Shown here one piece after another: positions 8 to 64,000 of a DNA stretch of 64,000 nt. Positions within the stretch are counted from its first letter, which is position 1, and every line of letters begins with the position of its first letter. Where the stretch lies: positions 49,208 through 113,207 of the IMG/VR virus record IMGVR_UViG_3300028840_002420. One strand, given 5' to 3'. The DNA is from a virus. The translations under genes and the position numbers were made by a program. The notes under the pieces were generated by a model. That model saw nothing but the letters and a program-made list of their open reading frames with translations. It was not told where the DNA came from and did no database searches.

Positions 8-376
8 TTGATCGACATTCTGGCGAGGCTGGGCAATCAACAGCCAAGTGATGACCCGTACAACTTCAAAACGGGGGGTGTCGGGCTGACCGTCAGGGAG
101 CATCGGGTGATGCTGGCGGCGATCTCGTGGCACATGCGTCCGCAAGCGGGAAGGGGGGCACTCAATTCCGCAAAGCTGGCCCGAAAGACCGCGATCTCTC
201 CAAAGAAGATTCCGCAAGTCGTCAATGCGCTGGGCGAAGCCGGGCTGATCGTCAACCTAGCCGGTGATTCGGCGCCGAATTTGGCCCCCAATCCGATCTT
301 GGGTTTTTGGGATCTTCGGAAATTAAAGGAGCTGCGGAAGGTCCGAACGGGCGCCGGGTCGCTGTGGAAACCATAG
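8..376 (+). CDS. Winged-HTH DNA-binding protein, probably 5'-truncated by the window edge; possible replication initiator
   Basis: Frame is open back to position 2; HTH-like segment LNSAKLARKTAISPKKIPQVVNALGEAGLI; followed directly by direct repeats. Confidence 0.5.
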   Translation: MIDILARLGNQQPSDDPYNFKTGGVGLTVREHRVMLAAISWHMRPQAGRGALNSAKLARKTAISPKKIPQVVNALGEAGLIVNLAGDSAPNLAPNPILGFWDLRKLKELRKVRTGAGSLWKP

Positions 377-522
377 CCACCCACGGCGGTGGGTATGAAG
401 CCACCCACGGCGGTGGCTCTAGGAGGTAGGAGTATGTGAAAACACATACTTACAGTTACCTTGTTTATACGGAGCGAAGCTCCGGGGATTCCGCAAATGA
501 AATACCGATCGATTCCGCAAAT
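375..522. repeat. Two pairs of direct repeats with 24-bp period (iteron-like)
   Basis: AGCCACCCACGGCGGTGG at 375-392 and 399-416; GATTCCGCAAAT at 487-498 and 511-522; AT-richer stretch at about 435-470 between them. Confidence 0.8.
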
Positions 523-528
523 CTGCCT

Positions 529-558
529 GCTACAGATCGGCTGGTCAGAGCATAGTAG
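529..558 (+). promoter_or_regulatory. Class A phage promoter motif GCTACA-N16-CATAGTAG
   Basis: One of five copies with conserved spacing; intergenic, upstream of the gene at 651. Confidence 0.7.
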
Positions 559-650
559 AGAAGGAAGCGGCTGCATCTGTTGACCAGGCTTCGCCTGGTC
601 CAGATGCGGGCACTTGTTCGATAGAGAACAACCAAAAAAGGAGACTCAAC

Positions 651-1151
651 GTGGAGACACCGAAGGACGCTCACAAGTACCTGGTCACCTACCAGCTCAA
701 GCACCACCCGAACGGGATCGAGGCTCAGGACGTTCCAGCGATGCACGGGGCCAGTGACGCGTTGATCGTGATTAGCCAGCTCTATCTGGAGGACGGATCC
801 TATTCCCAGTGCACCAGCGGACTGGATGGCCGCACGGGCGGCGACATCGAGCCGGGAGAGATGTGGAAGGCGTGGATGATACTCGCGCGGAGTTTGGCGG
901 TAGAGCATCCCAATCTGTCTCCAGGGCAGCGGCTCAGTGCGTGGACCGCGTTCAGCCTGGCTTCCCAGATGGTACACGGTAAGCAGCCGGAGCCGCCGCC
1001 AGACCTGCAGGCGCTTTTGGGGAAGCTGGACGGCCTGGTCGGCTACCAGCGGAATCCGGATGGACCGCAGGTCCAGGATACGCCGGTACCGGAAGCTCCA
1101 AAGCAAGGTCTGCGAGTGGTGGCAGATCCGACAGAGGATGGAGAGAGCTGA
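651..1151 (+). CDS. Hypothetical protein
   Basis: GTG start with AAGGAG RBS; coupled to the next gene. Confidence 0.75.
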   Translation: METPKDAHKYLVTYQLKHHPNGIEAQDVPAMHGASDALIVISQLYLEDGSYSQCTSGLDGRTGGDIEPGEMWKAWMILARSLAVEHPNLSPGQRLSAWTAFSLASQMVHGKQPEPPPDLQALLGKLDGLVGYQRNPDGPQVQDTPVPEAPKQGLRVVADPTEDGES

Positions 1152-1666
1152 TGCGCGATAACTGCGATCTTTGCGGAAAGGTGATTTCGACCACGGCCGA
1201 TCCGAACAACGTCGAAGGTTGGTTCGTCAGCCTGGAGCACGCCGAGCAGCTCGAAAGCGAGATCGCGCAGGGCCTGGATTATCCGCGCGGCTGGCTCAAG
1301 GAACGCTGCATGCAGTTGATCGTGTGCGCGGACTGTCAGGTTGAAAAGCCGAAGGCTGCACCACACGCGGTCCGATTGAACGTGGAAGGGACGCCGTTGT
1401 GCGTGATCGGTCCGGGAGCAGATGAGGCGGTTCAGGTGATGGCGGCCAGAAAGGCGTTCGTCGATCAGTACGCCGAGCGCAGAGGCTGGGATATGTCCGC
1501 GGGTCCGACGATGGAGCAGATCGCGGAAATCCGACAGCAGCCCGAGTGGCAGCAGATTGGTTCGACTCCGATGGCTCAGATTGATCCGAACGAGCAGATC
1601 GATCCAGCGGCCGGTGAGCAGGGAGCGCCAAGCGGAATTGCTCAGCCGGGGGATGAGGACTATTGA
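1151..1666 (+). CDS. Hypothetical protein with two CxxC motifs
   Basis: CDLC and CADC; TGATG overlap with upstream gene. Confidence 0.7.
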   Translation: MRDNCDLCGKVISTTADPNNVEGWFVSLEHAEQLESEIAQGLDYPRGWLKERCMQLIVCADCQVEKPKAAPHAVRLNVEGTPLCVIGPGADEAVQVMAARKAFVDQYAERRGWDMSAGPTMEQIAEIRQQPEWQQIGSTPMAQIDPNEQIDPAAGEQGAPSGIAQPGDEDY

Positions 1667-1974
1667 GCACGACAGAAGAACAGATCGCTAAATGGGCTGA
1701 GACGTATCGAGAGCGCGGCTGGCCGGTACCTTGTGCGGGCGAGGGCGATGCGGAGGGCTGTGATCGTTGTTGGTGCGCTGGAGGCGGAGACGCCGGGCCG
1801 TACTGTGCTGGAGGAGAGTACAAAATCCTTCGAGCGCAGTGGGTGATCGAGCATGGGCGTGAGTGGCTGTCGTGGTGCGGGTTATGGCTCTATGGCCCGT
1901 TCCCGCCAGACTATCGCCAAAGGTGCATTGTTCGACACGATGCCTGGCAGCTGAAGATCCGAGGTAAAGCCTGA
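1663..1974 (+). CDS. Hypothetical Cys-rich protein
   Basis: GAGGA RBS; overlaps both neighbours by 1-4 nt. Confidence 0.6.
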   Translation: MSTTEEQIAKWAETYRERGWPVPCAGEGDAEGCDRCWCAGGGDAGPYCAGGEYKILRAQWVIEHGREWLSWCGLWLYGPFPPDYRQRCIVRHDAWQLKIRGKA

Positions 1975-3452
1975 TGGGCCGGAAGGCTCAGATACATATC
2001 AACAACGCGCGCAGCCGCCTCGAGAACGTGCGTCCGGAGATCTTCAAGCTGCTGCGTCACGAGCTGTCATTTATGACGGGAGAGCCGGGCTGGCGGCGCC
2101 ACATGCAGGCTGACGGCTCCGTCAAGACGCATTGGTGGGACGGCTATCGCCGGCTGCTGCAGAAGAACGGATCGTTTCCGAGCGGGCTGCTGCCGCGGTT
2201 GTCGCGGCTGATGCACAAGTGGTCGGTGGGCTACGAGGTTAACGATCATCGCCGAAGGCCTCCTGAGAATGTTCCGCTGTGGCGGTTCCGCGATGATTTC
2301 GAGCTGCGGGATTACCAGATTGCGGACTGTGACGCGGCCGAGCGTTGGACCAGGGGTGTTATCGACTCGCCTCCCAGGACGGGCAAGACGGTGATGATCG
2401 CCGAGCTGCTGCGTCGGATCAGCTCGTCACGGGCGGTCGTGACAGCTCCGACCAGGCCGATTGCAGAGCAGACCTATGAAAAGCTGCTCGAGCTGTTTTG
2501 CGATTGGGCCGGGATGCTGCCAGATCTCCACGGAGACTTCTTTTTGCTGGTTGGTGGGGCTCCAAAGAGCGCCAAAGCAAATCGGGCGCTCGATCGAGCT
2601 CGAGTGGTTGTAGCGACGGCCGATAGCGCCGTGGGGATGCCAGATGCGTTCTGGGAGAAGACCGAGGCGCTGATTGTCGACGAGCGTCATCATCAGGCGG
2701 CCAAGACCTACCACAAGCTGTCCGACAAGGCGGTCAACGCGTACTGGCGTTGGGGATTCACTGGGACCAACTACCGGAGCAAAGGCGGAGAGCAGATAGC
2801 GTTGGAGGCATGCTTGGGCCGGACGGTCGCCAGCCACAGTATCCAGGAGATGACTGAGCGTGGTGTGTTGGTGCCGGCAGAGGTGGAGTTTTGGCCGGTC
2901 GACTACGATGGACTGCGGACGGTCAAGTACCAGCGGGCTTATCCCAAGGGCGTGGTGCAGAGTGAAGTCCGCAACGAGCTGGTCGCGCTGGCTGCGTCCA
3001 ATCTGCTCAACGAGGGGCGTAAGGTACTGGTGTTGGTCTATCGGCTCGAGCACGGCGAGCGACTTTCGCAGATGATCGCGGGCAGCCAGTTTGTCAAAGG
3101 CGAAGACGGCGACGAAGTGCGCCGGGCGGTGGCCAAGCTCGATTCGGGAAAGCTGCGGTGTTTGATCGGGTCACCGGTAGTCGGCGAAGGTCTGGATTGT
3201 CCGAGCGCCGACGGCCTGGTCTACGCCAAGGGCAACCAGGCTAAGGTGACGCACGTGCAGGACGTGTTTCGCGTGATGACGGGTCATCCAGGCAAGGTCA
3301 ATGCAAAAATTATTGACTTCGCGGATCGGCACAACGCGAGCCTGATCGAGCATAGTGTCGCGAGGATGCAGCATTACCAAGATATGGGCATGAAGATCAG
3401 CGTTGTCCCGAAAGAGGCCCTTGACACGCGGCAGCTGGATCTGCCAGGGTAG
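1974..3452 (+). CDS. Superfamily 2 DNA helicase (UvsW-like)
   Basis: Q-motif LRDYQ, Walker A PRTGKT, DERH, FTGT, GEGLDCP, IIDFAD. Confidence 0.88.
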   Translation: MGRKAQIHINNARSRLENVRPEIFKLLRHELSFMTGEPGWRRHMQADGSVKTHWWDGYRRLLQKNGSFPSGLLPRLSRLMHKWSVGYEVNDHRRRPPENVPLWRFRDDFELRDYQIADCDAAERWTRGVIDSPPRTGKTVMIAELLRRISSSRAVVTAPTRPIAEQTYEKLLELFCDWAGMLPDLHGDFFLLVGGAPKSAKANRALDRARVVVATADSAVGMPDAFWEKTEALIVDERHHQAAKTYHKLSDKAVNAYWRWGFTGTNYRSKGGEQIALEACLGRTVASHSIQEMTERGVLVPAEVEFWPVDYDGLRTVKYQRAYPKGVVQSEVRNELVALAASNLLNEGRKVLVLVYRLEHGERLSQMIAGSQFVKGEDGDEVRRAVAKLDSGKLRCLIGSPVVGEGLDCPSADGLVYAKGNQAKVTHVQDVFRVMTGHPGKVNAKIIDFADRHNASLIEHSVARMQHYQDMGMKISVVPKEALDTRQLDLPG

Positions 3453-3711
3453 ATATACGGCTTCGGCCGGTAATCCAGGAGGCTCGATGACTGATATCGA
3501 CTGACAACAACGATTGGGCGCAGCAGAGCGATTTGAGGGCGGCCATCGGCATCTTGCAGATGCACCTTCCGGCAGGATGACCATTCCGATGTTCACGCCC
3601 AAGAGTCTCCAACCTCTGCTGATTGCCCTTGTTATGCAACGCAGCTTTCGGTGTTGGCCCGTGCCGGGGCACATGACGCGTGATAACGGGCCTTCGTTTC
3701 AGGAGTAACGG

Positions 3712-3912
3712 ATGGACGCGATAACGATCACGGTGCCCGTCGAATACGCGCAAAAGTGGGTGCGCGGAGATGCCGATCATGACGTGCTGCAGGACGCAAT
3801 AGAGCGTGCGCTGAAGTGCACAAAGCCGACGCGACAAGATGCGGAAGCAGCTATCAAAGTGCTGCACGCGGCTGGTTGGATCGACGACTGCGGGTGCATT
3901 TCCAAGAAGTGA
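3712..3912 (+). CDS. Hypothetical protein
   Basis: AGGAG RBS upstream of ATG. Confidence 0.65.
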   Translation: MDAITITVPVEYAQKWVRGDADHDVLQDAIERALKCTKPTRQDAEAAIKVLHAAGWIDDCGCISKK

Positions 3913-3919
3913 GGACGCG

Positions 3920-4423
3920 ATGTCACCTATCTACAGAACCGGGGCGATCGGCGACAAGCGGAAGCTGATCAAGTTTTTCGCAGCCAAGGAGCACCAAAAT
4001 CTCGTGCTGCGGATCGCTGATGTGCTCGATCTGAGAAATGATCAGCAGGACTGGCTGATCGGTTTGGTCGAGATCGTGAAGTCGGTCCCGCAGCCACCCG
4101 TCCGGAAGGAAGCGACAGGCTGGCGGAAACGCTGGCTGCTGCAGACGTGCCCGAACGGCTATATCGTGCTGCCGTTCGAGGATCTTCTGGGGCCGATGGA
4201 CATGAAGGCCGTCATGCGTCTCCAGGAGGTCTGTTACGCCTACTACAACGTCCGGATGGGCAAGGGCGAGCCGAGCCGGGTCGACAAGTGCGACAAGTGT
4301 GGGGGCAGCAAGCAGGTCGACGGTGCCAAGTGCAAGCAGTGCGACGGCACGGGGATCACGATTACGTTTCTCGAGATGTCCGACGAAGAGCGGCGGTTGG
4401 CGCGGGGCGAGGATGCTGATTAG
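3920..4423 (+). CDS. Hypothetical protein with DnaJ-type zinc finger
   Basis: CDKCGGS...CKQCDGTG; GAGG RBS before ATG 3920. Confidence 0.7.
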   Translation: MSPIYRTGAIGDKRKLIKFFAAKEHQNLVLRIADVLDLRNDQQDWLIGLVEIVKSVPQPPVRKEATGWRKRWLLQTCPNGYIVLPFEDLLGPMDMKAVMRLQEVCYAYYNVRMGKGEPSRVDKCDKCGGSKQVDGAKCKQCDGTGITITFLEMSDEERRLARGEDAD

Positions 4424-5629: not shown

Positions 5630-5649
5630 CGATCGAAGAGGAGGGCGCC

Positions 5650-7340: not shown

Positions 7341-7929
7341 AGCTTTTCCTTTGTATTGGCCAGAAGGCTGGGATCGGACGAAACGACGGCGGCCGGGGCC
7401 GTACAAGGTGACGTTCGGTGCGGCGCTGAATGATCTGCGTGATGAGCTGAAGCGGTTCAACGCCCGATATCCGGTCATCAGCGCGAATGTCCCGTTGCGG
7501 AATGATGGGCTGCCCAAGGTTTCGTCGGTTGGGGATGGGACGCGATTCAGCGGTGATCCGGGGGTCGCGGTCTATTTTCGGCGGCGGGATCAGGAATTCG
7601 TGTTCGCGTGCGACAAGTACCTCCATCCGCGGGACAACATGCGGGCGGTCTTCCAGACGATCAACGCATTGCGGACGATCGAGCGCTGTGGGGTCACCGA
7701 GCTGACACAGCGGGCGTTCGCGGGATTCAAGGCGCTGCCTCCGCCAGAGAAGCCAAAACGCCCGTGGTGGGACGTATTTGGGCTGCGGCGTGAAGATGCC
7801 ACGATCGAGGTGGTCCAGGCGGTGTATAAAGCTCGTTCACGGAAAGCACACCCGGATTTTGCCAAAGACGATGGCGAGGCCATGAAAGAGCTGAATGAGG
7901 CGTTGACGGAGGCGAAGAAAGATCTCTGA
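7333..7929 (+). CDS. Phage J-domain protein (C-terminal DnaJ domain)
   Basis: FPLYWPEGW N-terminus; WWDVFGL...AVYKARSRKAHPD...MKELNEA with HPD motif. Confidence 0.85.
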   Translation: MAEAFPLYWPEGWDRTKRRRPGPYKVTFGAALNDLRDELKRFNARYPVISANVPLRNDGLPKVSSVGDGTRFSGDPGVAVYFRRRDQEFVFACDKYLHPRDNMRAVFQTINALRTIERCGVTELTQRAFAGFKALPPPEKPKRPWWDVFGLRREDATIEVVQAVYKARSRKAHPDFAKDDGEAMKELNEALTEAKKDL

Positions 7930-8972
7930 TGGCTGGCTCGAGCGCGTACTGGCGGGCGGAAGCCCGCTTTGACTGGCAGCGCTATGTGATTGACGCGGGG
8001 GGTGTGCGCGCGGTCCATAGTCGGCCGGAAGAGTATGTGCTGACGTGTCCGGACTGCTTCAAAGCTAAGTTGGCGGTCAATGTTGAGCGGCGGGCGTGGC
8101 AGTGCTGGACGTGCGGTGACGGCGGCCGGGACGCGTCGAGTCTGATTTCAAAGATCGAGCGCGTGATGTTCCACGAGGCGTTGGACCGGGTGATGACCGG
8201 ACACCAGCAGGCCGTGGGGCGGATCGATGTGCTGGATAAGCGGCTTGCTGGTCACCAGGATCGGCCGCGGGTTGAAGTCCCGAATGCGATGGTTTGGCCA
8301 GATGGATTTCATACACTGGCGCAGCCACCGACAGCGCGTGAGATGGTCGACTGGTGGGTGCAGGCGATCGGCTACTGTCGGTTTCGTGGAATTGAAGAGT
8401 ACGTGGTCCAAGAGATGCAGCTCGGGTTTTGCACCAAGGGGCGGTATCGACGGCGGCTTATCTTCCCGGTGTTCGATTACGGCGGCCGGCTGGTTTTTTA
8501 CCAGGGGCGTGCGATGTGGCCGAGAGTGACGCACAAGCGGTATATCAAGACGCTCAGTCCGAAGCTGGAGGAAGGCTACGCCGGCGCTTCGGATGTGCTG
8601 CTCAATCTGGCCTATCTGGTGGCGCGCGGCATACCAGAGCGGTTGTTGGTTGTTGAGGGGCCGATTGATTGTGCCCATGGCTGGCCGGACTGTGTGGCGA
8701 CGTTCGGCAAGCGGCTGTCCGATCGGCAGATGCAGTTGTTGGTCCGGGCTGGCGTCAAGCAGATCGATCTGGGTTGGGATCCAGAAGAGATGAAGACGAC
8801 AGAGAAGCAAGCCGCGATGCTGACCGATCTGTTCGAAGTGCGGATTGTGCAGTGGCCTTCGGGGAAGGATCCGGGGGACCTTTCGAAAGAAGAGATTGAA
8901 GGGTTTCGCCGACAAGCGCGGGTGTGGGGGAGTGGTGATCGGCTTAGCCGTTTGACTAATGTGCTCAGGTAG
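7929..8972 (+). CDS. dnaG: DNA primase (Zn finger + TOPRIM)
   Basis: CPDC...CWTC; RLIFPV; VVEGPID; ATFG; DPGD. Confidence 0.88.
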   Translation: MAGSSAYWRAEARFDWQRYVIDAGGVRAVHSRPEEYVLTCPDCFKAKLAVNVERRAWQCWTCGDGGRDASSLISKIERVMFHEALDRVMTGHQQAVGRIDVLDKRLAGHQDRPRVEVPNAMVWPDGFHTLAQPPTAREMVDWWVQAIGYCRFRGIEEYVVQEMQLGFCTKGRYRRRLIFPVFDYGGRLVFYQGRAMWPRVTHKRYIKTLSPKLEEGYAGASDVLLNLAYLVARGIPERLLVVEGPIDCAHGWPDCVATFGKRLSDRQMQLLVRAGVKQIDLGWDPEEMKTTEKQAAMLTDLFEVRIVQWPSGKDPGDLSKEEIEGFRRQARVWGSGDRLSRLTNVLR

Positions 8973-8999
8973 GCCTTTTGGGGCCTGAAAGGAGGCTCG

Positions 9000-9470
9000 A
9001 TGATGTACCAGTGGGATCGGATTGTTGGCCAGATCGTGTGGGCTCGGGCTCGAGCTGCGAGGATCTTCGGCCTCCCTCCAGAAGAGTTGATGGCTGTCGG
9101 GCGAGCTGCAGCGGTGGAGGCTGAGCAGTCGTGGCAGTCATCGGGCGGCCGGTCGATGAGCAGTTGGGTGTATCTCAGCGTACAGATCGCGGTGCAGCGC
9201 GCCATGGTGGCCGCTGGTCGTTACGCTGCGGAAGAGGAAGAGGTCGGAGTCGATCCGGAGCCCGAAGCTCAGTATTTTATCCGGGAGGCGCTCGAGTACC
9301 TGGAAGCACGGTTACCCAGCGAGGACTGGGTGCTGTTGTGGCTATATCACGCGGAAGGTCGAAATTGCGTTGAGTTAGCTGAGCGTTGGGGGATCGCGCA
9401 TCAGTCGATGAGGCGGAAGATCAGCAAGGCGCGAAAAAAGGCGGCTACACTTTGCGCGCTGTACGCATAG
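9000..9470 (+). CDS. Phage RNA polymerase sigma factor (short sigma70/ECF-like)
   Basis: Region-2-like EELMAVGRAAAVEAEQSW..SGGRSMSSWVY and region-4 HTH LLWLYHAEGRNCVELAERWGIAHQSMRRKISKA. Confidence 0.75.
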   Translation: MMYQWDRIVGQIVWARARAARIFGLPPEELMAVGRAAAVEAEQSWQSSGGRSMSSWVYLSVQIAVQRAMVAAGRYAAEEEEVGVDPEPEAQYFIREALEYLEARLPSEDWVLLWLYHAEGRNCVELAERWGIAHQSMRRKISKARKKAATLCALYA

Positions 9471-9473
9471 TAG
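9444..9473 (+). promoter_or_regulatory. Class A phage promoter motif GCTACA-N16-CATAGTAG
   Basis: Overlaps the 3' end of the sigma gene; followed by AGGAG RBS and ATG 9489. Confidence 0.75.
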
Positions 9474-11069: not shown

Positions 11070-12584
11070 ATGTCTGGCGATCAACGTTACCCACAGTACC
11101 CATTGCCTGGGCAGGGCGCTGTTCACGGGGCGGTAGCGCCTCATGGGCATCCCGAGCAGGCTCCACAGGGCCAGCCTCCACAGGGCCAGCCTCCACAGGG
11201 CCAGCCTCCACAGGGCCAGCCTCCACAGGGCCAGCCTCCACAGCAGGCTCCGCAGCAGGGTTATCCGCAGCAGTTTTCTCCAGAGGCCGCAGTTGCCGAG
11301 GGAGTGCTGGCTGGTGCCGGTTATCCGCAGCAGTCGCCGCAGCAGTCGCCGCAGCAGTCGCCGCAGCAAGCGCCGGGACAGCCGTGGAATCAATCGGCTG
11401 ACTTGCCTCCAGAGATGGCGGCAGCGATGGCCGATGCTGTGGATCAGTCCCGTGTCGGCGGGTCCGATGCGGATTTCTGGCGACCGAACAAGCCGAAGAA
11501 CGTCGGAGAGACGGCGGAGTCGGTTGTCCGGGTGTTCCCGAGCTGGACGGGGGATCCGCGTATGCCGTTCTGGCATATGTCGTGGCGGCATTTTTGCATG
11601 GTCCAGCTAGAGGACGGCAGCAAGCGGCGCCAGCCGCGGAATTGCCCAGCCAAGAACGTACCGCCAGGCAGTCCACCGGGTCGTTGTGCTATCTGCGACC
11701 GACGCGAGCGGGCGTTGGCGGCCGGCGACGAAAAGACGGCGAAGACGCTCGAGCCGAAACCGCGGTTCTACATGAACGTGATCGACGCCAATGACCAGGA
11801 CGCTCATTGGAAGGTCGATCCGCAGACCGGGCAGAATGTGCCTGTCGCTAAGGTGTGGGATTGCACGCCGGGGCTGTTCAAGAAGCTGACGAACGTCATT
11901 TCTGCTAAGGGCGCGATTTACGATATGCAGGTCGGGCGCTATCTCAAGGTATTCGCAGCGAAGCACGGCAGCGAGGACCGAGATGTGCGGTTCGATTGCA
12001 CCGACGCGACGGATCCATGTCCGGTTCCGGCTGGATTCGAGCAGACAGTGTTGGTCGCGTTGGACAAGCTCGATTCGGCTCGCTCGTATGAAGAGCTGGC
12101 GAACGATATCGCGGCGACCTATCCCGATCCCCAGGGAATGCCCGTTGGAGGCGCGCAGCAGCCGCCGCAGCAGCCGCCGCAAGCTCAGCCCCCTTATGGG
12201 CCACCAGCGGGTTACGGACAGCCACAGGCGCAGCAGGGCTATCCGCAGCAGGGCTATCCGCAGCAGGGCTATCCGCAGCAGGGCTATCCGCAGCAGGGCT
12301 ATCCGCAGCAGGGCTATCCGCAGCAGGGCTATCCGCAGCAGGGCGCTCCGCAAGGTCCTCCGCAAGGTCCTCCACAGGGCTACCCGCAGCAGGCCGCTCC
12401 GCAGCAGGGCTATCCGCAGCAGGGCGCTCCGCAAGGTCCTCCACAGGGCTACCCGCAGCAGGGCGCTCCGCAAGGCGCTCCACAGGGCTACCCGCAGCAG
12501 GGCGCTCCGCAAGGCGCTCCGCAAGGTCCTCCGCAGCAGGGCGCTCCGCAAGGTGCACCGGGAGGTGATGATGTCCCTTTCTAG
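11070..12584 (+). CDS. Single-stranded DNA-binding protein (T4 gp32-like core) with long Q/P/G/Y low-complexity tails
   Basis: VRVFPS...PFW...H...NCP...CAIC...[11 protein letters not shown] core; acidic tip DDVPF; AGGAGG RBS before ATG 11070. Confidence 0.8.
11161..11243 (+). repeat. Coding 15-bp tandem repeat (PQGQP) x5
   Basis: CTCCACAGGGCCAGC, five perfect units plus a partial one. Confidence 0.95.
12231..12344 (+). repeat. Coding 15-bp tandem repeat (QQGYP) x7
   Basis: CAGCAGGGCTATCCG, seven perfect units, followed by degenerate units to about 12555. Confidence 0.95.
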
Positions 12585-12589
12585 GGGAT

Positions 12590-21647: not shown

Positions 21648-22305
21648 TCCACCGAAGGGGCCGGCTGCAGCTCCACCTGACGCGAAGCGTAAGAAGCTGC
21701 AGCGGTGGGAGTATGAGCGGGCGATCCAGTCCGCGGAGGTGGCGTATATCACCGATGAGCGGATGCGTCCGCTCGAGTATTGGTGGGACCAGCTTTGCTC
21801 TCATTGCATGCCGCTACAGCGGTTTAAGAGCCGTTCGAAGATCGGCAGATGGTCCGAGCGGCGGAGCAAATACTGGGAGGCTGTCACTCAGGAAGTTCTG
21901 CGCCAGACCAAGCACAAGATCGTTCATGATCGTGCGGCCGAGCTGCAGCAGATGCAGCGTCTTCGCCAGGCTGCGTACGACGCGGTAGAGCCGCGGCTAG
22001 ATAAGGATGGGCGGTTGGTGTATCCCGTGGCGCCGAAGAGCCTGGAGGGCATGATTACGGCGCTTGTGCGGCTCGATATCCGGGCAGACGACAAACGGGA
22101 TGAGCTTTTGGCGATAATTGATCCTGAGCTGCTTAAGGAGACGGCCGAGCAGCAAGGACAGCAGTTCTCTCCGGAAGATATGCGGACGGTCGCTCGAGTA
22201 CTTCTAACCAAGCGCCGGGAGGCGCAGACGCGGCGCATCAAAGAAAACGAGCGTCAGCTACTCACCGAAGGATCGGGTGAAGACGATGAAGAAACAGATC
22301 TTTGA
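21634..22305 (+). CDS. Hypothetical helical protein, possible terminase small subunit
   Basis: HTH-like N-terminal part ending RSKIGRWSERRSKYW, then long helices, a TerS-like layout; inference only. Confidence 0.4.
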   Translation: MGKRSPPKGPAAAPPDAKRKKLQRWEYERAIQSAEVAYITDERMRPLEYWWDQLCSHCMPLQRFKSRSKIGRWSERRSKYWEAVTQEVLRQTKHKIVHDRAAELQQMQRLRQAAYDAVEPRLDKDGRLVYPVAPKSLEGMITALVRLDIRADDKRDELLAIIDPELLKETAEQQGQQFSPEDMRTVARVLLTKRREAQTRRIKENERQLLTEGSGEDDEETDL

Positions 22306-23716
22306 GATTGATCCGAAAGACATCGTAATCGGTTGGCGGGTGCGGCTAGATCCAGGCGATATTAACGAGCTGGCTGCATCGATTTTGGAGCACGGGCAGA
22401 TGCAGCCGATCGCGGTCAAGACCAACGGTGATAATCGGCTTGAGCTCATCTCTGGCGAGCGGCGGATCCAGGCTTGTCGGCAGCTGCAGCGCAAAGTTCT
22501 CGCGGTTCTGGTCGAGCCGAAGGATGAGCTGCAAGCTCTCGATATGCAGCTGGATGAGAATCTGAGGCGGAAGGATTTTGACGATATCGAGCGTGGGCTT
22601 GGTTTGGCTCAGCGTAAGATGATCTACGAGAAGCTCCATCCAGAGACCAAAGTCGGCGGCGCTGGTCGCGGCCGTCCGAAAAGTAGGATGGCGAAATCTG
22701 ACAACCTGACAGATCCGCCAAGAGAGCCGGCCGAGCGATTCACCAAAGTCACGGCCAAGCGGTTTGGGATCGGTGAGACCAAGGTCAAGGAGATGTTGGC
22801 GATCGTCGGGCTGTCCGCAAAGCCGAAGTTCCAAAAGAGGATGCGATCTGCGAAGGACAAGCCGGTTGCCGAGCGAAATCGCATTTACATGGAGTGTCTG
22901 CAGGAGCACCGTCGGGATAAGAAGATGGAGCGGCTCAAGGCCGAAGCCGATAAAAAGGCCGAGCTGCAGAGTCAGGCCGAGCTGAATGATCAGGGTGAGG
23001 TAGCCGAGACTGAAAACGCGCGGCCGATCCACGTCTATCATGACGACTGCCTGAAGCTGATGGCGACGTGGCCGAAGGAGTCTGTAGATTTGGTGGCTTC
23101 CGATCCGCCGTTTGGACGGGCGCGGAGCCAGATCGCCCACATTGCTCGAGCGAGCATTAATCCGGAAGAGCACAAGTGGGACAAGCTGGATGTCGGCTGG
23201 GTGATGCTGGCCGCTCCGCTGCTCGTGCCGGGTGGGCAGTTGCTGACGTTCTGTCCGCTCGAGAAGGTCGGAGACTACGAAGTAGCTTGCGAAGCGGCCG
23301 GGCTCGACTACCGGATGGCGATTCTGTGGTGCAAGACCAATCCGGGTCCAGCTCATCGGCCGACCTACGTGTCCGCAGTCGAGGCTATCGTGTGGGCCGT
23401 CAAGCCGGGCAAAGCTCCCTACTTCAAGCCGTGGGAAGGCAAGAGCACGGATGGGGACTACCACCCAATGAACTGGTTCGAGTCACCGATTTGCGGTGGC
23501 CGGGAGCGGTTGCATCCGACACAGAAGCCGCTGGCTGTGATGCTGAAGCTGCTGCATCGGCATGCGTCGCCAGAGCTGAATCATAGGGTGCTCGATCCGT
23601 TCGCCGGCGCGGGGACTACGGGTGTGGCTTGTCGACAGATGGGGCTGTCCGCAATCCTGATCGAAAAGGACGAGACCTATTTGGAGATGATCCGAGCGCG
23701 GATGGCTGCGCAATGA
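22286..23716 (+). CDS. ParB-like domain fused to beta-class N6-A/N4-C DNA methyltransferase
   Basis: ELAASILEHGQMQPIAV...ISGERR...DENLRRKD; catalytic DPPF, HPTQKP, SAM motif DPFAGAGTT. Confidence 0.9.
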   Translation: MKKQIFEIDPKDIVIGWRVRLDPGDINELAASILEHGQMQPIAVKTNGDNRLELISGERRIQACRQLQRKVLAVLVEPKDELQALDMQLDENLRRKDFDDIERGLGLAQRKMIYEKLHPETKVGGAGRGRPKSRMAKSDNLTDPPREPAERFTKVTAKRFGIGETKVKEMLAIVGLSAKPKFQKRMRSAKDKPVAERNRIYMECLQEHRRDKKMERLKAEADKKAELQSQAELNDQGEVAETENARPIHVYHDDCLKLMATWPKESVDLVASDPPFGRARSQIAHIARASINPEEHKWDKLDVGWVMLAAPLLVPGGQLLTFCPLEKVGDYEVACEAAGLDYRMAILWCKTNPGPAHRPTYVSAVEAIVWAVKPGKAPYFKPWEGKSTDGDYHPMNWFESPICGGRERLHPTQKPLAVMLKLLHRHASPELNHRVLDPFAGAGTTGVACRQMGLSAILIEKDETYLEMIRARMAAQ

Positions 23717-41164: not shown

Positions 41165-41378
41165 TGAGGCTGTGGCCTTGGGCACGTAGGCCGCGATGCT
41201 GCAGGCGCGCGGTCAAGATCATCTATGCCGGGCTGCCAGGCCGCTGGTGTCCGCGGTGTGGAAGGCTTAGCGGTCCCGCGTGTTGGGCCGCTCAGATATT
41301 CTTCACGGGCTGGATGATGACCTACACCGGTAGCTACTGGCTGGCGCTGTGGGAGTGGTTGCGGAATTCCGCATCGAA

Positions 41379-41459
41379 TGCGGAATAGAGGGTTGACAGT
41401 GCGGAGAGTCTCCGCTACCTTCTAATTATCGCTTCGGCGATTCACCAAGGAGACTCACG
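41379..41459 (+). promoter_or_regulatory. Class B (host sigma70-like) promoter cassette
   Basis: TGCGGAATAG; TTGACA 41393-98, 17 nt, TACCTT; TGCGGAG after -35; UUCG hairpin; CCAAGGAGACTCA RBS. Confidence 0.75.
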
Positions 41460-45901: not shown

Positions 45902-45923
45902 GGGTCCAGGTCCGCATCTGCCT

Positions 45924-45953
45924 ACATCTTGATCGCTGATTGCGGAATGTCAA
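45924..45953 (-). promoter_or_regulatory. Leftward sigma70-like promoter
   Basis: Minus-strand TTGACA (45953-45948) directly followed by TTCCGCA; -10 box weak. Confidence 0.45.
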
Positions 45954-45989
45954 GGGATGCGGGTGTTTACGATTGCGGAATTCGTTTTC

Positions 45990-46064
45990 TGCGGAATAGG
46001 GGTTGCAAAGTGCGGAGTCGCGGTCACCATGATCAGTGCCTTTGGGCGAACCCAGGAGACTCAG
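45990..46064 (+). promoter_or_regulatory. Class B promoter cassette
   Basis: TGCGGAATAGGGGTTGCAAAGTGCGGAG...CCAGGAGACTCAGATG. Confidence 0.7.
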
Positions 46065-46344: not shown

Positions 46345-46656
46345 ATGCCGCAGCTCAAGCTACCTTTCCGCGGGGCGATTTTGTCGCGGAAGCATGGCGG
46401 AACGGCGAAGTGCCGCGGCTATTGCCGGTATTGGAAGACGCGTCCGCGGCAGCTCGAAGATTGGCTGCTTTGCGCTGGTAGTATCGATTGGCCTCCGTGT
46501 CCGGACTATCAGGTTTGTCGGGCCAATCCAGCTCCGCGGTTGGTCATTGTCAAAGACCCGTCCAAGCCGCCACCAAACTACACACTGCGGCCGAAAGGCC
46601 AGAGAGGGGGAGCCAATGCCGAAGACGGCGGGAACCTACCCGATGACACCAATTGA
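46345..46656 (+). CDS. Small Cys-rich protein
   Basis: Begins MPQLKLPF; CRGYC...C...CPDYQVC. Confidence 0.5.
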   Translation: MPQLKLPFRGAILSRKHGGTAKCRGYCRYWKTRPRQLEDWLLCAGSIDWPPCPDYQVCRANPAPRLVIVKDPSKPPPNYTLRPKGQRGGANAEDGGNLPDDTN

Positions 46657-46939
46657 AGATCATATCGCCCGCGCTTTGTCACTCGCTGGGCTGAGTAGCC
46701 GTGAGATCGCTAAGATGCTCGGACGGAGCGATAAGACGATCAGCCTGGCCTTTGAGCGTGCGAGTGCGAGCGAGGATGATCATCCATTATTGCGGATGGC
46801 GTCTCAAAAGGAGGTGCTTAAGTCGCTGTCTGCGAGCGATAAGCGGCTGCTGACGAATATCTTGGGCTTCTCCCAGTGGTTGAGCTCCGGAAGAGAAAAC
46901 GGCTACGTGGCTGCGCTAGTGCGGCTGATTCGAGGGTAA
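46616..46939 (+). CDS. HTH DNA-binding protein
   Basis: GLSSREIAKMLGRSDKTIS; GGAG RBS. Confidence 0.75.
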   Translation: MPKTAGTYPMTPIEDHIARALSLAGLSSREIAKMLGRSDKTISLAFERASASEDDHPLLRMASQKEVLKSLSASDKRLLTNILGFSQWLSSGRENGYVAALVRLIRG

Positions 46940-48134: not shown

Positions 48135-48215
48135 TGCGGATTAGGGGGGTTGACATGCGGAGTCCCTTCGATCATAGTCTAAGGAGTTCTTCGGAACGCC
48201 ACCAAGGAGACTCAG
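48135..48215 (+). promoter_or_regulatory. Class B promoter cassette
   Basis: TGCGGATTAG; TTGACA 48150-55, 17 nt, CATAGT; TGCGGAG after -35; UUCG hairpin; CCAAGGAGACTCAG RBS. Confidence 0.78.
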
Positions 48216-48956
48216 ATGCCTCAACTAGCCCTCGTAATCGCAACTCTCCTCACCATCCGCAAAGGCGCATTCGTCCGTTCCTGGAACAGCCCGTACCCTG
48301 AGCGTCGCACCCAGGAGCACTCTTGGGTCGAGGGGATCGTTGAGGACATCCGCCCCAACGATATGTTTCCGTCCACCTGCGATCACTACGTTATCCGGGT
48401 GACTGCGGATTATTGCGAGGGTCGGCGGGTGGTCGGCGAAAACAGCCTGGTTGGCCAGTATGTCTATCCGCCGGTCAACGGTGCGGAAAGCACGACGGGT
48501 CGTGTCGCCGATGGAGTCGAATATCTCGATGAGATCGATTCGACCATCTGGGGCGAGTCTCCGCAAGGCGAAGGCTACATGGCTCCGGCCGGCTATCTTA
48601 CGGTTCGCCAGATCGTTTCGGCGTTGTCCGCTCGGTTGTCCGCGGAAGACCTGATCGACGAGTACGATGCTCTGGGACTGGCCTACAAGTACGAGCGGCG
48701 CGGTCCGGACGGTCTCGAGCCTGCTCTGGATGCGGATGCAGCGCTGCCAGGACAGCCGCGGTTTGAAGTCAGCGTCAACGAGGGGGGCTCTGAGGGTCAC
48801 TACGTTCAGGTGCGGATGTTGGTCCGGGACGACAGCAAGGCCAACTACGAGTACAACCCTGACGCGTCGGAGATCATCTACACGGTCAAGACCTTCACCG
48901 GGTTCGAGGGGGCGTTCCGCATTGCGAAGCGGATCAATCAGCTTCTGGGCTGCTAA
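48216..48956 (+). CDS. Hypothetical (probable early) protein
   Basis: Strong RBS; YPPVNG and GGSEGHYV...VKTF motifs suggest two fused phage domains. Confidence 0.75.
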   Translation: MPQLALVIATLLTIRKGAFVRSWNSPYPERRTQEHSWVEGIVEDIRPNDMFPSTCDHYVIRVTADYCEGRRVVGENSLVGQYVYPPVNGAESTTGRVADGVEYLDEIDSTIWGESPQGEGYMAPAGYLTVRQIVSALSARLSAEDLIDEYDALGLAYKYERRGPDGLEPALDADAALPGQPRFEVSVNEGGSEGHYVQVRMLVRDDSKANYEYNPDASEIIYTVKTFTGFEGAFRIAKRINQLLGC

Positions 48957-53163: not shown

Positions 53164-53640
53164 GTGAAAGCGATCATTGCGGCGATTCTGTGGTTGGCTC
53201 CGCACGTTGGACAGCAGCGGGCGGAGGTCTATGCGGAGCTGATTGCGGACGCGGGTGCGTGCTATCGGATCGCTCCGCTGCTGATTGTCGCCAAGATCCA
53301 GCTCGAGACGCGCGGTAGCTGGCGAGAAAACGCGGTCAGTCCGACGGACGACTACGGGCTGGCTCAGCTGCACGTTTCCGCAACGACACATGCGGAATAT
53401 CGAGGGCTCGAGCATCTGCTGTTCGAGCCGGACCGCAATATCTGGATGGCTGCGCGACTGCTGCGCTACTGGCAGAGCTACCACGATCGGCATTGTTTGC
53501 GGACGGGCCGTGAGGACCACCCGTGGTGGGCGCACTACCAGTGGGGGAACAAGGTGCGGAATTTGAGGTCTGCGCGCCGTGTCGGGCGGTTGTATCGGGA
53601 GCTGGTGCGGAAATTCCGCAGAGGGATTCCGCAGTCATGA
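53164..53640 (+). CDS. Lytic transglycosylase (SLT-like) with signal peptide
   Basis: IAPLLIVAKIQLET, DYGLAQL, LFEPDRNI..AARLL, AHYQWG. Confidence 0.8.
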   Translation: MKAIIAAILWLAPHVGQQRAEVYAELIADAGACYRIAPLLIVAKIQLETRGSWRENAVSPTDDYGLAQLHVSATTHAEYRGLEHLLFEPDRNIWMAARLLRYWQSYHDRHCLRTGREDHPWWAHYQWGNKVRNLRSARRVGRLYRELVRKFRRGIPQS

Positions 53641-53843
53641 GGCCGCACGAAGGTGATCCGTGCGTTCATTGCGGAATTCCGCACGATGAGGTGCCGGTGG
53701 GGTCGTGTCCAGGCTGTCCGGAGTGCGGTGGGCGCGGCTACTATCCCGAACCACACGGACCTGAAGATCCGTGGGGTGTGCAGGACGTGCGGGAACGCTA
53801 TTGTAGCTGTCCGGCCGGTAAGCGGCTGAAGGAGGCCGAGTGA
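53637..53843 (+). CDS. Small zinc-finger protein
   Basis: CVHC, CPECGGRG, CSC; coupled to terminase start. Confidence 0.55.
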   Translation: MRPHEGDPCVHCGIPHDEVPVGSCPGCPECGGRGYYPEPHGPEDPWGVQDVRERYCSCPAGKRLKEAE

Positions 53844-60729: not shown

Positions 60730-60753
60730 GTTGTGGGCAAAGGAGATTCCGCA

Positions 60754-62922
60754 ATGCCTGCCGGAGCGGTCAAGACGCCTGAAGACGAGAAGAATTGGCA
60801 GCGCGCGAAAGATGCGGCGGCCAAGCAAGGCCAGGCCGGCAATTACCGGCTAATTATGCACATCTTCAAGCAGATGCAGGGGTCCAAGTCGTTATATCCG
60901 GACGAACAGACGCCGGATTTGCGGAAAGTCGCCAAAGCCGAAGCGGACGAAGCCAAGATCCGAGCCGGATTGAAAAAACAAGCGAGCAAGCATCGACGGC
61001 TTGCGGAAGAACATCGCCGAGCGAATCCGAAAGGCGGTGGAACGATGGGACGGTGGCGTCAGGAGCGGGCACACGATGACGCTCAGGAAGCTCACCGGGA
61101 AGCTGCGGAAACCAGCGAGGAAGCGATCACGGATACTTCCAAGCGGGATGAAGCTCAGGATACGAGCGATGCGGCATTCACCCATCCGCCAGCAGAGGAG
61201 GTCAAGAGCATGGAGTCAATCAGCAAATCCGAATATGACGCTCTGCCTGTTCTGGAGAAAGCAAAGTACAAGCAGCGGTATCGTGGACCGGGCGGAGAAT
61301 GGCGCTACGTGTACGATGAGTCGGGCAAGCAGCCGCGTGAGGGGATGGTCGAGGGTTTTCCAGGGGAATGGCGTCGTGATCCGAAGCACGGCCAGAAAAA
61401 GCGCGAGAAGCGTCAACAAGCCAAAAAGCAGAATCGAGATGAGTTGGCGCGCCGACAGGCCACACTCGCCGGGACTGGATCGGCGGCTGGATTGACGCCT
61501 CGGCAGCAGGTTCAGACAGCCATCGGGGCTCAGGCGACAATGAGAGCTGCACGGCAGAAGGACGCAGCTGTATTGTCGGCCGCTCAGAAGATTTCCACGA
61601 TGTCGATGGTCACAGGTGCGGAAACCAAGCAGCTTGCCCAAGCGGCTCAGGCTATCCATGGTCTGAGCGGTGCGCGGGATAAGGTTCGTGCGCTGGCCCG
61701 AGAGATCTTGGCAAGTAAAGAGCCGTCGATGGGCGGTAAGGCGAAACAGCTGGCCAAGCTGATTCAAACGACATTGGCCGCGGAGAAATCGATGACTGGC
61801 GCCATTCAGAAGGGGTTGCGTAAGGCCTTCAGCAAGCCCGCGGAAAAGGATCCGAAAAAGGATCCGAAGGCCAAGCCGACCGATGAGGAAGACGAAGCCA
61901 ACGAGCCGGGGAGCCACGATCATCACAAGGATCGGGCGCTCGCTCATTTGCAGGCCGCTCAGGCTCACGCTACGGCCGCTCACAGCGCCAAGAAGGTCGA
62001 GGCGGCCAAAGAGCACAAGCAGGTGGTCGATGCAGCAGAGCAGGCCTCACAGGCTGCTGTGAGTGACACGCCGGACGGTAAGGAGCCGGTGGCTAAGGGC
62101 GGGTTCTACGGAGACAACCTGACGCGTTGGGCTGACCAGTTCATGGGTAACGCCGAGCTGCACGAGCAGGCGTTGAAACTGGTCCGGGACCGCATGGTGC
62201 TGGACGCTCAGCGGCCGAAGTGGGCGGATACCGCCGAGTCGTTGAAGGCGCGGCAAGCTCACGAGGCCAAGAGTCAGAAGCTGCGCGACGAGATGGACGC
62301 AGTGGAGAAGCGGTATCTGGACTTCCGCATCAAAGAAGCCGAGACGCGGAACAAGATGAGCAAGTCCGGACCGACTCTGGTTCGTCCGGAAGAGGATATC
62401 GGGTTCCATAAGTCGCAGATCGTCCACCATCACGCCGAAGATGCGGTGCTCGAGCACTTGGAAGGCGGGGCGGTTATCGGTGGCCAGCTTGCCGGGCTGC
62501 GGCATGATGGCCGGTCGCGGCTGCTCGGGATGCGCGGTGAGCGGATGACCAAGGGCGGAGTCGCTGGCGGTACGGTCTACCAGGGCGAGCACAATGCTCC
62601 GCGCGGTGGCGATATGCGCGAAACCGTCGCTCGAGCTCAAAGCTACGCAGAGACGGTGCAGCTCGATCCAGACGAGACGCGGGGACAGGGGGGCCTTCCC
62701 GAATGGTGGGAGGACGCGTGGCACGAAAATCCGGAGGTCAAGGTACCTGTGGGCCTGGAAGGCAGTCGCGGATTCGCCAAGGGCCAGACGCCGGCTGTCA
62801 ACGTGATCGACGACAGCGATCCAGTGACCAAGGCGCATCGAAGCGACGTGAATCGTGTCGGCCTGGCGGTCGAGATGCGGTATCACGGAGACGGTAGAGA
62901 GACCAGGCGAGACGGCCGCTAA
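60754..62922 (+). CDS. Large modular hypothetical protein, probable internal head polyprotein
   Basis: AAGGAG RBS; N-terminal MPAGAVKTPEDEKNWQRAK module; KYKQRYRGPGGEWRYVY motif; many hydrophobic-x-K-S/A/G sites. Confidence 0.65.
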   Translation: MPAGAVKTPEDEKNWQRAKDAAAKQGQAGNYRLIMHIFKQMQGSKSLYPDEQTPDLRKVAKAEADEAKIRAGLKKQASKHRRLAEEHRRANPKGGGTMGRWRQERAHDDAQEAHREAAETSEEAITDTSKRDEAQDTSDAAFTHPPAEEVKSMESISKSEYDALPVLEKAKYKQRYRGPGGEWRYVYDESGKQPREGMVEGFPGEWRRDPKHGQKKREKRQQAKKQNRDELARRQATLAGTGSAAGLTPRQQVQTAIGAQATMRAARQKDAAVLSAAQKISTMSMVTGAETKQLAQAAQAIHGLSGARDKVRALAREILASKEPSMGGKAKQLAKLIQTTLAAEKSMTGAIQKGLRKAFSKPAEKDPKKDPKAKPTDEEDEANEPGSHDHHKDRALAHLQAAQAHATAAHSAKKVEAAKEHKQVVDAAEQASQAAVSDTPDGKEPVAKGGFYGDNLTRWADQFMGNAELHEQALKLVRDRMVLDAQRPKWADTAESLKARQAHEAKSQKLRDEMDAVEKRYLDFRIKEAETRNKMSKSGPTLVRPEEDIGFHKSQIVHHHAEDAVLEHLEGGAVIGGQLAGLRHDGRSRLLGMRGERMTKGGVAGGTVYQGEHNAPRGGDMRETVARAQSYAETVQLDPDETRGQGGLPEWWEDAWHENPEVKVPVGLEGSRGFAKGQTPAVNVIDDSDPVTKAHRSDVNRVGLAVEMRYHGDGRETRRDGR

Positions 62923-62932
62923 GGGGTAGCGT

Positions 62933-64000
62933 ATGGGCCTCCTTTCACGAGTAGCAGGCGGTCTCGGGTCCGCTCTCGGGGTGGGCGTGGACGCGTTCGC
63001 CAAGGCGACGATGACCGCCGACGATCCGGCCAATCGTAGCAGCGCATCGACAGCGATGTCGCTCGCGGAAAAGCCGGCGAGCCTCCCGCCAGAGCCAACC
63101 GGTGACGACCCGAAAGGGCTGCTGTTCGATCCGTTCGCGTTGATCGATCAGCTGGGGTACCGAGATCGCCCGACAGGGCTGACCTATCAGACGTTGCGCG
63201 AGATGGCCAAGCGTGTGCCGACGTATACGGCCGTGCTTCAGACGCGGCTGACTCAGGTCAAAAACTTCGGGCAGCGCCAGAAGGATCCACGAGAGCCGGG
63301 CTACGGAATCATCCTCCGCGACGAAAAAGCCACACCGACCACGCAGGACGAAAAGCGGATGCGTCAGCTCGAAGACTGGCTGATGCAGACTGGGACGGAG
63401 TGGAGCCACGCTCGGGACAACTTCAAGACGTTCTTGTTCAAGATCACGCGGGACAGCCTCATCCTGGACCAGTGCTGTTTCGAGATTCAGCACAACCGCA
63501 AGGGCGAGCCGTGGGCGTTCTACGCGATGGACGGCGGCCAGATGCGGCTGGCGGATGTTCCGCCCGGTGCGGAAGCCAACACGCCGCTGGATGTCGTCAA
63601 GTACGTCCAGGTCTACGATGAGATGGTTATCGCGGAGTTTGGTCCGCACCAGCTCAACTTCGGCGTGCGGAATCCGCGGACCGACATCCGAGTCAACGGC
63701 TACGGCTATTCCGAGCTGGAGATGCTGATCAACGTCATCACAGCTTCGTTGTGGGCGTTCGAGTACAACAAAAAACAGTTCAGCCAGGGAACGTTTGCCA
63801 AGGGGCTGCTCAACTTCAAGGGTACAGTCCCCGATAAGAAGATCGATGCCTTTCGCCGTCAGTGGCAGATGATGATTGCGGGGGTTTCCAACGCCGGCAA
63901 AACGCCGATGACCAATGTCGATGAAGTGCAGTGGATCGATCTGCACAGCAACAATCGCGACATGGAGTTTTCTGCGTGGATGGACTGGCTGATCAAGATC
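62933..64000 (+). CDS. Portal protein (SPO1/Twort-like), 3'-truncated; missing from the ORF track
   Basis: Manual translation from ATG 62933 is open to the window end: LTYQTLREMA...TRLTQV...RDSLILDQ...VRNPRTD...GYGYSELE...FSQG...FRRQW...GVSNA...RDMEF. Confidence 0.88.
   Translation, partial: MGLLSRVAGGLGSALGVGVDAFAKATMTADDPANRSSASTAMSLAEKPASLPPEPTGDDPKGLLFDPFALIDQLGYRDRPTGLTYQTLREMAKRVPTYTAVLQTRLTQVKNFGQRQKDPREPGYGIILRDEKATPTTQDEKRMRQLEDWLMQTGTEWSHARDNFKTFLFKITRDSLILDQCCFEIQHNRKGEPWAFYAMDGGQMRLADVPPGAEANTPLDVVKYVQVYDEMVIAEFGPHQLNFGVRNPRTDIRVNGYGYSELEMLINVITASLWAFEYNKKQFSQGTFAKGLLNFKGTVPDKKIDAFRRQWQMMIAGVSNAGKTPMTNVDEVQWIDLHSNNRDMEFSAWMDWLIKI

Follow-up and report, generated by a model that had tools for sequence, protein, structure and literature searches.

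The final 64 kb of the virus record IMGVR_UViG_3300028840_002420, a single contig of 113,207 bp in total, are rich in a short asymmetric word, TGCGGA followed by A or C, which occurs in both orientations, within genes and between them, and which returns next to the -35 box of a putative promoter cassette present in several copies. This stretch of 64,000 nucleotides is called the window, and coordinates refer to it unless the genome is named. The record has a G+C content of 60%, carries a 144-bp terminal repeat and has a completeness rating of 100%. In our own gene calls for the full record 143 of 146 genes lie on the plus strand. Structural and packaging genes occupy 103-113 kb and 0-45 kb of the genome, tRNA genes lie at approximately 47 kb, and 50-73 kb is taken up by a module of T4-like genes for replication and recombination. 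This module comprises a UvsW-like helicase, a DnaB-like helicase, a DnaG-type primase, a small sigma factor, SSB, RecA, PolA, SbcCD and a ParB-methylase. A further region of about 30 kb (the ORFan region) consists of small open reading frames (ORFs), nearly all without a Pfam family. The features of the window that concern the word are these:

166..63672, both strands: dispersed word TGCGGA(A/C), 108 TGCGGAA and 59 TGCGGAC, genic and intergenic, evaluated against shuffle, codon and dicodon nulls.
166..519, both strands: cluster of five heptamers (four in minus orientation) around the beginning of the replication module.
41360..41415, plus strand: putative promoter cassette 1, with the perfect palindrome TGCGGAATTCCGCA (41360-41373), TGCGGAA (41379-41385), the -35 box TTGACA (41393-41398) and TGCGGAG (41400-41406).
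45941..46017, plus strand: putative promoter cassette 2, with TGCGGAA at 45941, 45974 and 45990, the -35-like box TTGCAA (46003-46008) and TGCGGAG (46011-46017).
48135..48178, plus strand: putative promoter cassette 3, with TGCGGAT (48135-48141), the -35 box TTGACA (48150-48155), TGCGGAG (48156-48162) and the -10 box CATAGT (48173-48178).
53376..53683, both strands: densest cluster, eight heptamers in 308 bp, including TGCGGAAATTCCGCA (53606) and TGCGGAATTCCGCA (53670).

The dispersed word TGCGGA(A/C)

The initial annotation, made from the sequence of the window, had put the heptamer TGCGGAA/TTCCGCA at roughly 100 copies. The exact count is 108, against 12.2 ± 3.6 (maximum 23) in 100 dinucleotide-preserving shuffles of the window. 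The share on the coding strand had been overestimated at three quarters, 72 of the 108 copies (67%) being on the plus strand. Codon-aware nulls, in which every protein sequence was kept and non-coding sites were fixed, left the excess in place. With independent codons 25.5 plus-strand and 10.5 minus-strand copies are expected in the window, against 72 and 36 observed. Loss of the enrichment under a dicodon-aware null had been named beforehand as a refutation, but this null predicts 29.8 ± 3.4 and 11.7 ± 2.2 copies, 41.5 together, so the enrichment persists. The whole genome contains 168 copies (108 plus, 60 minus), whereas 39 + 16 are expected when synonymous codons are shuffled within genes, 32.9 + 14.2 when codons are resampled with the proteins kept and 39.0 + 16.7 (55.7 in total) under the dicodon-aware null, which was trained on this same genome and is therefore biased against finding enrichment. 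Where only the places permitted by the proteins are considered, 148 coding copies compare with 28.3 expected from protein sequence and codon usage.

All six reading frames of the genome are enriched, which agrees with the earlier remark that copies fall in different frames and in non-coding DNA; three frames are used on each strand. The frame xxT-TCC-GCA has 19 copies where 0.46 are expected (41-fold), and the word is thus written even with rare codons. The most strongly enriched compartment is non-coding DNA (8.4 kb genome-wide), with 18 copies against approximately 1.1 (about 16-fold) by our composition estimate. TGCGGA(A/C) is therefore a true signal at the level of the DNA and neither a composition nor a codon effect. 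A separate case of rare-codon use lies just before the window, at 48634-48867 of the genome on the minus strand, where a small acidic low-complexity protein, apparently secreted, repeats Asp-Ser-Ala; its GAT-TCC-GCA repeats account for five copies of the word.

While the enrichment of the heptamer stands, the core of the motif is actually the hexamer TGCGGA followed by A or C (TGCGGAM). The hexamer itself occurs 383 times in the genome against 88 under an order-2 model, and TGCGGA(A/C) 271 times in 113 kb against 74 expected from the protein sequences. Under a protein-preserving null the seventh base is enriched 3.6-fold as A, 3.8-fold as C, 2.0-fold as T and 1.4-fold as G, and the remaining single substitutions of the word are at or below expectation. 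TGCGGAC alone reaches 59 copies in the window, compared with 14.4 by shuffle. Only 6-7 positions are informative, and no further conserved base was found in the flanks within ±50 bp. A two-part promoter with TGCGGAA as its -35 box was considered and rejected because no second element exists within the same ±50 bp. A repair-driven origin was likewise rejected, as deamination variants are not depleted (TGTGGAA 1.04) and no one-off variant is specifically scarce. The 15 copies of TATCCGCA/CAGGGCTA that recur with a period of 15 bp in the SSB gene (approximately 11070-12584) encode a (QGYPQ)n repeat and were not accepted as part of the system; this repeat inflates hexamer counts in the minus-strand reading. 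Our literature search found no paper containing TGCGGAA or TTCCGCA, and a phrase search returned nothing specific.

After correction for coding bias the sense orientation is enriched 4.6-fold and the antisense orientation 6.7-fold at protein-permitted sites. Antisense selection is thus as strong as sense selection, no skew is left and the 2:1 strand ratio does not belong to the signal itself. The uneven spread that had been described was confirmed, although the interval 1.2-24 kb holds 10 copies and not seven; the regions said to be dense, from 24.1 kb onwards and at 166-522, hold 93 copies (from 24143 on) and five copies (166-519). Among the genome modules, TGCGGAM is found 131 times in the structural genes against 27.3 expected, 103 times in the ORFan region against 32.2 and 22 times in the replication module against 10.3, the last being the least enriched (2-fold). 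The structural genes outside the window thus reach 4.8-fold, above the ORFan region. Copies are clumped, with a variance/mean ratio of 2.9-4.1 in 2-kb bins and 19 close pairs (within 30 bp) against 7.3 ± 2.6 expected; some of these pairs are perfectly head-to-head, their heptamers 0-1 bp apart. The inverted pairs reported before are exact at 41360/41367, 53670/53677 and 53606/53614, and the clusters placed at promoters were recovered at 41360-41406, 45911-46016 and 48135-48161. The majority of intergenic regions contain no copy of the word.

The densest cluster (53376-53683) lies 160-460 bp upstream of the gene for the large terminase (TerL), within the end of a gene with an SLT domain and an ORF of 58 aa. 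No equivalent of this pac-like cluster upstream of TerL was present in the relatives examined.

The palindrome GCTCGAGC is a further hyper-abundant word, with 76 copies in the whole genome where the protein-preserving null predicts 11.3. Evenly distributed and found in every frame (in the window for example at 53412-53419), it resembles a highly iterated palindrome. The related contigs L146, L153 and L179 have GAGCTC/CTCGAG in its place (for example 142 against 25).

Promoter cassettes and dialects in related phages

The proposed link of the word to promoters was borne out at three cassettes of the window, each of which has one copy directly 3' of the -35 box. Cassettes 1 to 3 (anchored at 41379, 45990 and 48135) are paralogues with the consensus TGCGGAW-TAG-G-rich-TTGACA/TTGCAA-(0-2 nt)-TGCGGAG. 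In each of them two word copies start 21 bp apart and therefore flank the -35 box on both sides. The shared leader terminates in a common Shine-Dalgarno sequence, and an alignment of the three cassettes leaves few invariant blocks, namely both TGCGGA blocks and part of the Shine-Dalgarno region. A separate promoter scan found TTGACA-17-CATAGT at 48150-48178 with 10 of 12 matches. Judged by these elements the cassettes would be sigma-70-like promoters present in several copies, and they are probably early promoters. The spacer copy of cassette 1 lies inside an inverted repeat, GCGGAGA-G-TCTCCGC (41400-41415), of which cassettes 2 and 3 retain the left half. The cassettes of a relative, G004, retain the inverted form, and this repeat may be the ancestral operator.

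As relatives of the present phage (G000), more than 100 contigs (L-numbers) of sediment and marine phages, many of them 98-110 kb long, were collected with TerL and a conserved structural protein of 355 aa as queries, and three further complete genomes (G004, G005 and G006) were compared. Word enrichment is a trait of this clade of roughly 100-110-kb phages and comes in dialects, TCTGGA being more common than TGCGGA. The TGCGGA type includes G004, where TGCGGAA is the top heptamer (60 against 12), as well as L174, L155, L133 and L249. Members of the TCTGGA type span 53-71% G+C. The complete genome of G005 (109.8 kb) has 514 copies of TCTGGA (252 plus, 262 minus) against 89.5, mostly as TTCTGGA (336 copies), and G006 has 298 against 51, mostly as GTCTGGA. 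A second relative besides G005 is also strand-balanced (145 plus, 153 minus), and the 20.9-kb fragment L204 contains 139 copies of TCTGGA. In other members different words are found, CGATAA in L226 for instance, or nothing beyond palindromes like GAGCTC/CTCGAG. Finally, G003, with 53% TerL identity and a similar G+C content, shows nearly no enrichment of TGCGGA or TCTGGA.

The promoter position of the word was followed across lineages by counting how often the lineage's word lies 0-3 nt after a -35-like hexamer:

G000: TGCGGA after the -35-like box, 6 observed, 1.4 expected.
G004: TCCGCA (the word inverted) after the -35-like box, 6 observed, 0.35 expected.
G005: TCTGGA after the -35-like box, 11 observed, 0.74 expected.

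G005 has ten copies of TT(G/T)AC(A/G)-(0-1)-TCTGGA, with an inverted copy approximately 29 bp upstream. The form in G004 is TTGACA-nn-(C)TCCGCA, with a -10 region resembling that of cassette 2, and L204 possesses two such cassettes with its own word. The own word thus holds the spacer position in three lineages and a fragment of a fourth. The observation that is new here is that, in a promoter cassette present in several copies, the private word of a lineage occupies the spacer immediately 3' of the -35 box. Because the genome-wide word co-varies with the promoter position, its reader is tied to these promoters.

In the genes for TerL, a 1594-aa protein and a 722-aa protein only two site positions are common to L134 or L155, which indicates that sites turn over. 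Spacing differs as well between lineages: in G005 and G006 it is more even than random (variance/mean 0.62-0.87), close pairs are below chance and the orientation of neighbouring copies is random. Two TGCGGA-type relatives, L133 (7001-8000) and L135 (1001-2000), carry six TCTGGA within 1 kb inside TerL. The top words of L226 (CGATAA, 86 against 22), L231 (ACATCC, 19 against 2.6) and L244/L245 (CCGATA, 29 against 7) may be additional dialects.

Regional clusters of TGCGGAA were also seen in G001 and G002, two mutually related phages of 49-50% G+C that are unrelated to G000 (45 and 58 copies against 12 and 7 for the controls). The clusters lie at 3559-4061 of L104/L123 (G001) and in L109/L128 (G002:45268-51054). 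Their AT-rich intergenic arrays have GCCGGAA alternating with TGCGGAA in a 10-bp phasing and look like iterons or operators. A blastp search at 1e-4 found no match for a reader common to G000 and these two genomes.

With regard to the wider distribution, the identical phage was found in one sediment and one seawater metagenome. A further sequencing run, X3, was considered as the source of a diverged strain and rejected, since its fragments are identical and of low coverage. INPHARED contains no nucleotide match to the phage, and the best identity of its DNA polymerase there is at most 30%. Matches in genome collections are contigs of metagenome-assembled genomes from four phyla and probably represent mis-binned phage.

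The word should not be confused with a second class of putative promoters, belonging to this gene:

9000..9470, plus strand: small phage sigma-like factor of 156 aa, with likely promoters of the form GCWACA-N17-CATAGTAG that are free of the word.

Five such sites lie at 551, 9466, 27649, 31843 and 36177, none of which uses the TGCGGA word, and CATAGTAG occurs five times against 0.1 expected. They are likely the promoters of this 156-aa factor. One heptamer of the cluster at 166-519 lies 9 bp upstream of a GCTACA-N17-CATAGTAG site.

Possible readers of the word

A possible explanation for these observations lies in a phage-encoded protein that binds the word in duplex DNA, acting at the cassette promoters and marking the whole genome. 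We favour this reading tentatively. The word would be a cis-acting element, kept by selection in both orientations throughout the genome, and would represent the local dialect of a clade trait. A protein bound at the cassette word would overlap the footprint of RNA polymerase and might switch the probably early promoters off or on, while the hundreds of intragenic copies would allow the same protein to coat or mark the phage DNA in the manner of SPO1 TF1 and phi29 p6, which rely on other means of recognition. Selection of both orientations fits the recognition of duplex DNA and not of RNA. The TCTGGA core is kept in relatives of widely differing G+C content, which favours a phage-borne over a host-specific reader. 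Binding to duplex DNA gives the best fit because it accommodates selection in either orientation, the pairs of nearby copies, the word blocks that do not vary between cassettes and the co-variation across lineages. Of the earlier proposal that a phage protein coats or marks selected regions, a reader determined by the phage thus survives as the best explanation, and membership of the stoperator family does not.

Several points weigh against such a protein. G006 shows just one case of the word at the promoter position, and because the cassettes within a genome are paralogues, the promoter evidence amounts to about four independent lineages. The even, unclustered spread in G005 and G006 resembles a signal for coverage of the genome, in priming, protection or modification, more than it resembles operators, and an ordinary regulator would be titrated by 270-500 sites of 6-7 bp in each genome. 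No small DNA-binding protein common to G000, G004, G005 and G006 was found by blastp, and the dense regions contain about 30 ORFs without a Pfam family.

What the four complete genomes have in common are structural genes and genes for the replisome and recombination. Searches of Pfam and PHROGs with approximately 60 proteins left nearly all ORFs of the dense region without a family. Three genes of the window were considered as readers in particular:

46616..46939, plus strand: helix-turn-helix (HTH) protein of 107 aa, HTH_38 or sigma-70 region 4-like, PHROG 'DNA binding protein', third gene after cassette 2.
22277..23716, plus strand: ParB-N / N6_N4 DNA methylase fusion, considered as reader or modifier.
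7929..8972, plus strand: DnaG/gp61-type primase with zinc ribbon, DNAG_N and Toprim matches, all weak; kept in four of four complete genomes and the reader if the word serves priming.

The HTH protein of 107 aa belongs to the operon behind cassette 2 and has a homologue in G004 just downstream of a cassette; homologues of 60-69% identity occur on further contigs. Its fold model (pLDDT 67) gave generic HTH matches only (E > 0.3), and no family was found for it in IMG/VR. G005 encodes an unrelated 108-aa double-HTH protein behind one cassette, and the two proteins do not align. The protein at 46616 had been named as a candidate together with a winged HTH protein (8-376) and an H1-like protein (9489). 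Among the complete relatives all three have homologues in G004 only, the nearest of them, and the HTH protein of 107 aa may be retained as a weak candidate. Between cassette 2 and this gene lies a 103-aa ORF (46345-46656, plus strand) missed by the gene caller; as it has a homologue in G003 (42% identity over 50 aa), it is probably a real gene.

It might be thought that the word serves the replication machinery of the phage as a start or recognition signal, most simply for the DnaG/gp61-type primase, being read on single strands and dense on both for frequent lagging-strand priming. Primase, DnaB-like helicase and the rest of the T4-like set are the DNA-handling genes common to the four complete word-bearing genomes, and the word in G005 and G006 is strand-symmetric and regularly spaced with few close pairs. 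DnaG-type primases recognise trinucleotides, and to our knowledge a requirement for 6-7 nt would be unprecedented in this class. Primases with a long template site do exist, that of NrS-1 being an example (PMC8718748). The clumping of the word in G000, however, and its mere 2-fold enrichment in the 23-kb replication module are difficult to reconcile with priming, and head-to-head pairs and a fixed position after the -35 box in several lineages have no evident role in it. G003 and L146, family members represented by fragments, show little or no enrichment of either word. We regard priming as rather unlikely.

It appears unlikely that the ParB-methylase or some other enzyme modifies the DNA specifically at the word, with dense modification shielding more of the genome from host nucleases. 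The phage does encode the ParB-N / N6_N4 methylase fusion, and enzymes of the N6_N4 class may have recognition sites that are short and asymmetric. Every variant of the word ends in GGA and so has a methylatable adenine at the same place, and the even, strand-symmetric spread in the relatives would suit a coverage function. Against this, a search that took in PF01555 and PF02384 methylases and homologues of the fusion, though not C5 methylases or other chemistries, found none in G005 and G006, in which enrichment is strongest, whereas the fusion is present in G003 and L146 despite little or no enrichment of TGCGGA. The absence of a specifically depleted one-off variant also speaks against modification. 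By the same distribution the ParB-methylase (22286), which the initial annotation had listed as a candidate, is improbable as a family-wide reader.

Still less probable is a word read by the host and adopted by the phage, such as a Chi-like site for RecBCD or AddAB, a binding site of a host transcription factor or a sequence of the uptake type. Sequences of this last type are strand-symmetric and found in every frame, and the clusters of TGCGGAA in the unrelated G001 and G002 would also be compatible with a host word. A Chi site is an asymmetric word of 5-8 nt, and its enrichment in phages can be strong (PMC12315714). Chi enrichment in lambdoid phages accompanies the absence of an own recombination module (PMC12315714), but the present phage has a RecA and an SbcC of its own and, on less firm evidence, an SbcD-like nuclease and a UvsW-like helicase. 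Relatives of 53-71% G+C with a common TCTGGA core are unlikely to share a host factor, an orientation bias is absent and neighbouring sites in G005 and G006 are randomly oriented, and G003, with a similar G+C content, has nearly no enrichment. Lastly, a functionless by-product of amino-acid, codon or codon-pair usage is refuted by the protein-permitted-site and dicodon nulls, together with the enrichment in rare-codon frames and in non-coding DNA, even though the xxT-GCG-GAA (Ala-Glu) frame holds the largest share of copies (54 of 168) and another frequent word, CGAGCTG, is frame-locked (104 of 130 copies in one frame) and therefore a codon-pair effect.

Known systems and implications

The word had been compared with the stoperators of mycobacteriophage L5. 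Like the Cluster A stoperators of the L5 gp71 type (PMC6550527, PMC9283540), which are asymmetric sites of one protein in genes and at the early promoter, it has a motif that varies by lineage. Stoperators are 13 bp long and for the most part point the same way with respect to transcription (PMC6550527), and a few dozen of them serve lysogenic immunity, whereas the phages considered here have 270-500 orientation-neutral copies of 6-7 bp. An operator at the promoter with a lineage-specific motif is found in G000, G004, G005 and L204 (the early status of these promoters being inferred), but no immunity repressor was identified in G000. Searches of the genome for Phage_integrase and Resolvase gave no match, which leaves other modes of lysogeny possible; the 113-kb phage is probably virulent. 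The analogy therefore does not extend to membership, and the system stands outside the stoperator family, though its working mode may be partly similar.

SPO1 TF1 and phi29 p6, which selectively coat phage DNA, show the working mode that is proposed for the reader of the word, in which an abundant phage protein lies over the genome and acts at early promoters. TF1 recognises hydroxymethyluracil DNA and p6 bendability, and neither goes with a hyper-abundant exact word. T4 MotA boxes are, like the word, phage-specific and lie next to or over the -35 region of promoters for host polymerase. The MotA box has 9 bp, lies at approximately -30 of middle promoters, where it replaces the -35 box, and is not dispersed in genes; the 6-7-bp word stands beside the -35 box and is spread through genes. 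The Neisseria DUS, the Haemophilus USS and the cyanobacterial HIP1 are words of cellular genomes tied to competence or of obscure cause. They are similar in pattern only, being exact, hyper-abundant, lineage-specific and present on both strands and in every frame, while TGCGGA and TCTGGA belong to a virus clade and double as a promoter-spacer element. Chi is a short asymmetric word as well, enriched throughout the DNA of Chi-rich lambdoid phages (PMC12315714), but it is host-defined and orientation-dependent, in contrast to the orientation-neutral and promoter-linked word of a phage with its own recombination genes.

If the word is read by a phage protein, it would amount to a sequence-based self-marking of a viral genome, which viruses are otherwise known to achieve by modified bases (T4, SPO1) or by long operators numbering a few dozen (L5, P1). 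One could go further and suppose that in these phages a private word of 6-7 bp, placed at intervals of 200-700 bp by means of silent and rare codons, serves as a tag of their own DNA, that one phage reader both distinguishes phage from host DNA and controls the repeated early-promoter cassette, and that its specificity was switched between lineages (TGCGGA, TCTGGA, varying flanks) with the promoters rewritten to follow. This wider proposal is doubtful. The simpler reading, by a phage protein, would if it holds also show that such a mark constrains codon choice across a genome, and the switch of words between lineages, with the cassettes following, would be a natural system for the concerted change of a specificity and hundreds of its sites. 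The private words could aid the recognition and binning of clade members in metagenomes. For the search for the reader, the clade provides complete genomes with two dialects together with a defined promoter assay.

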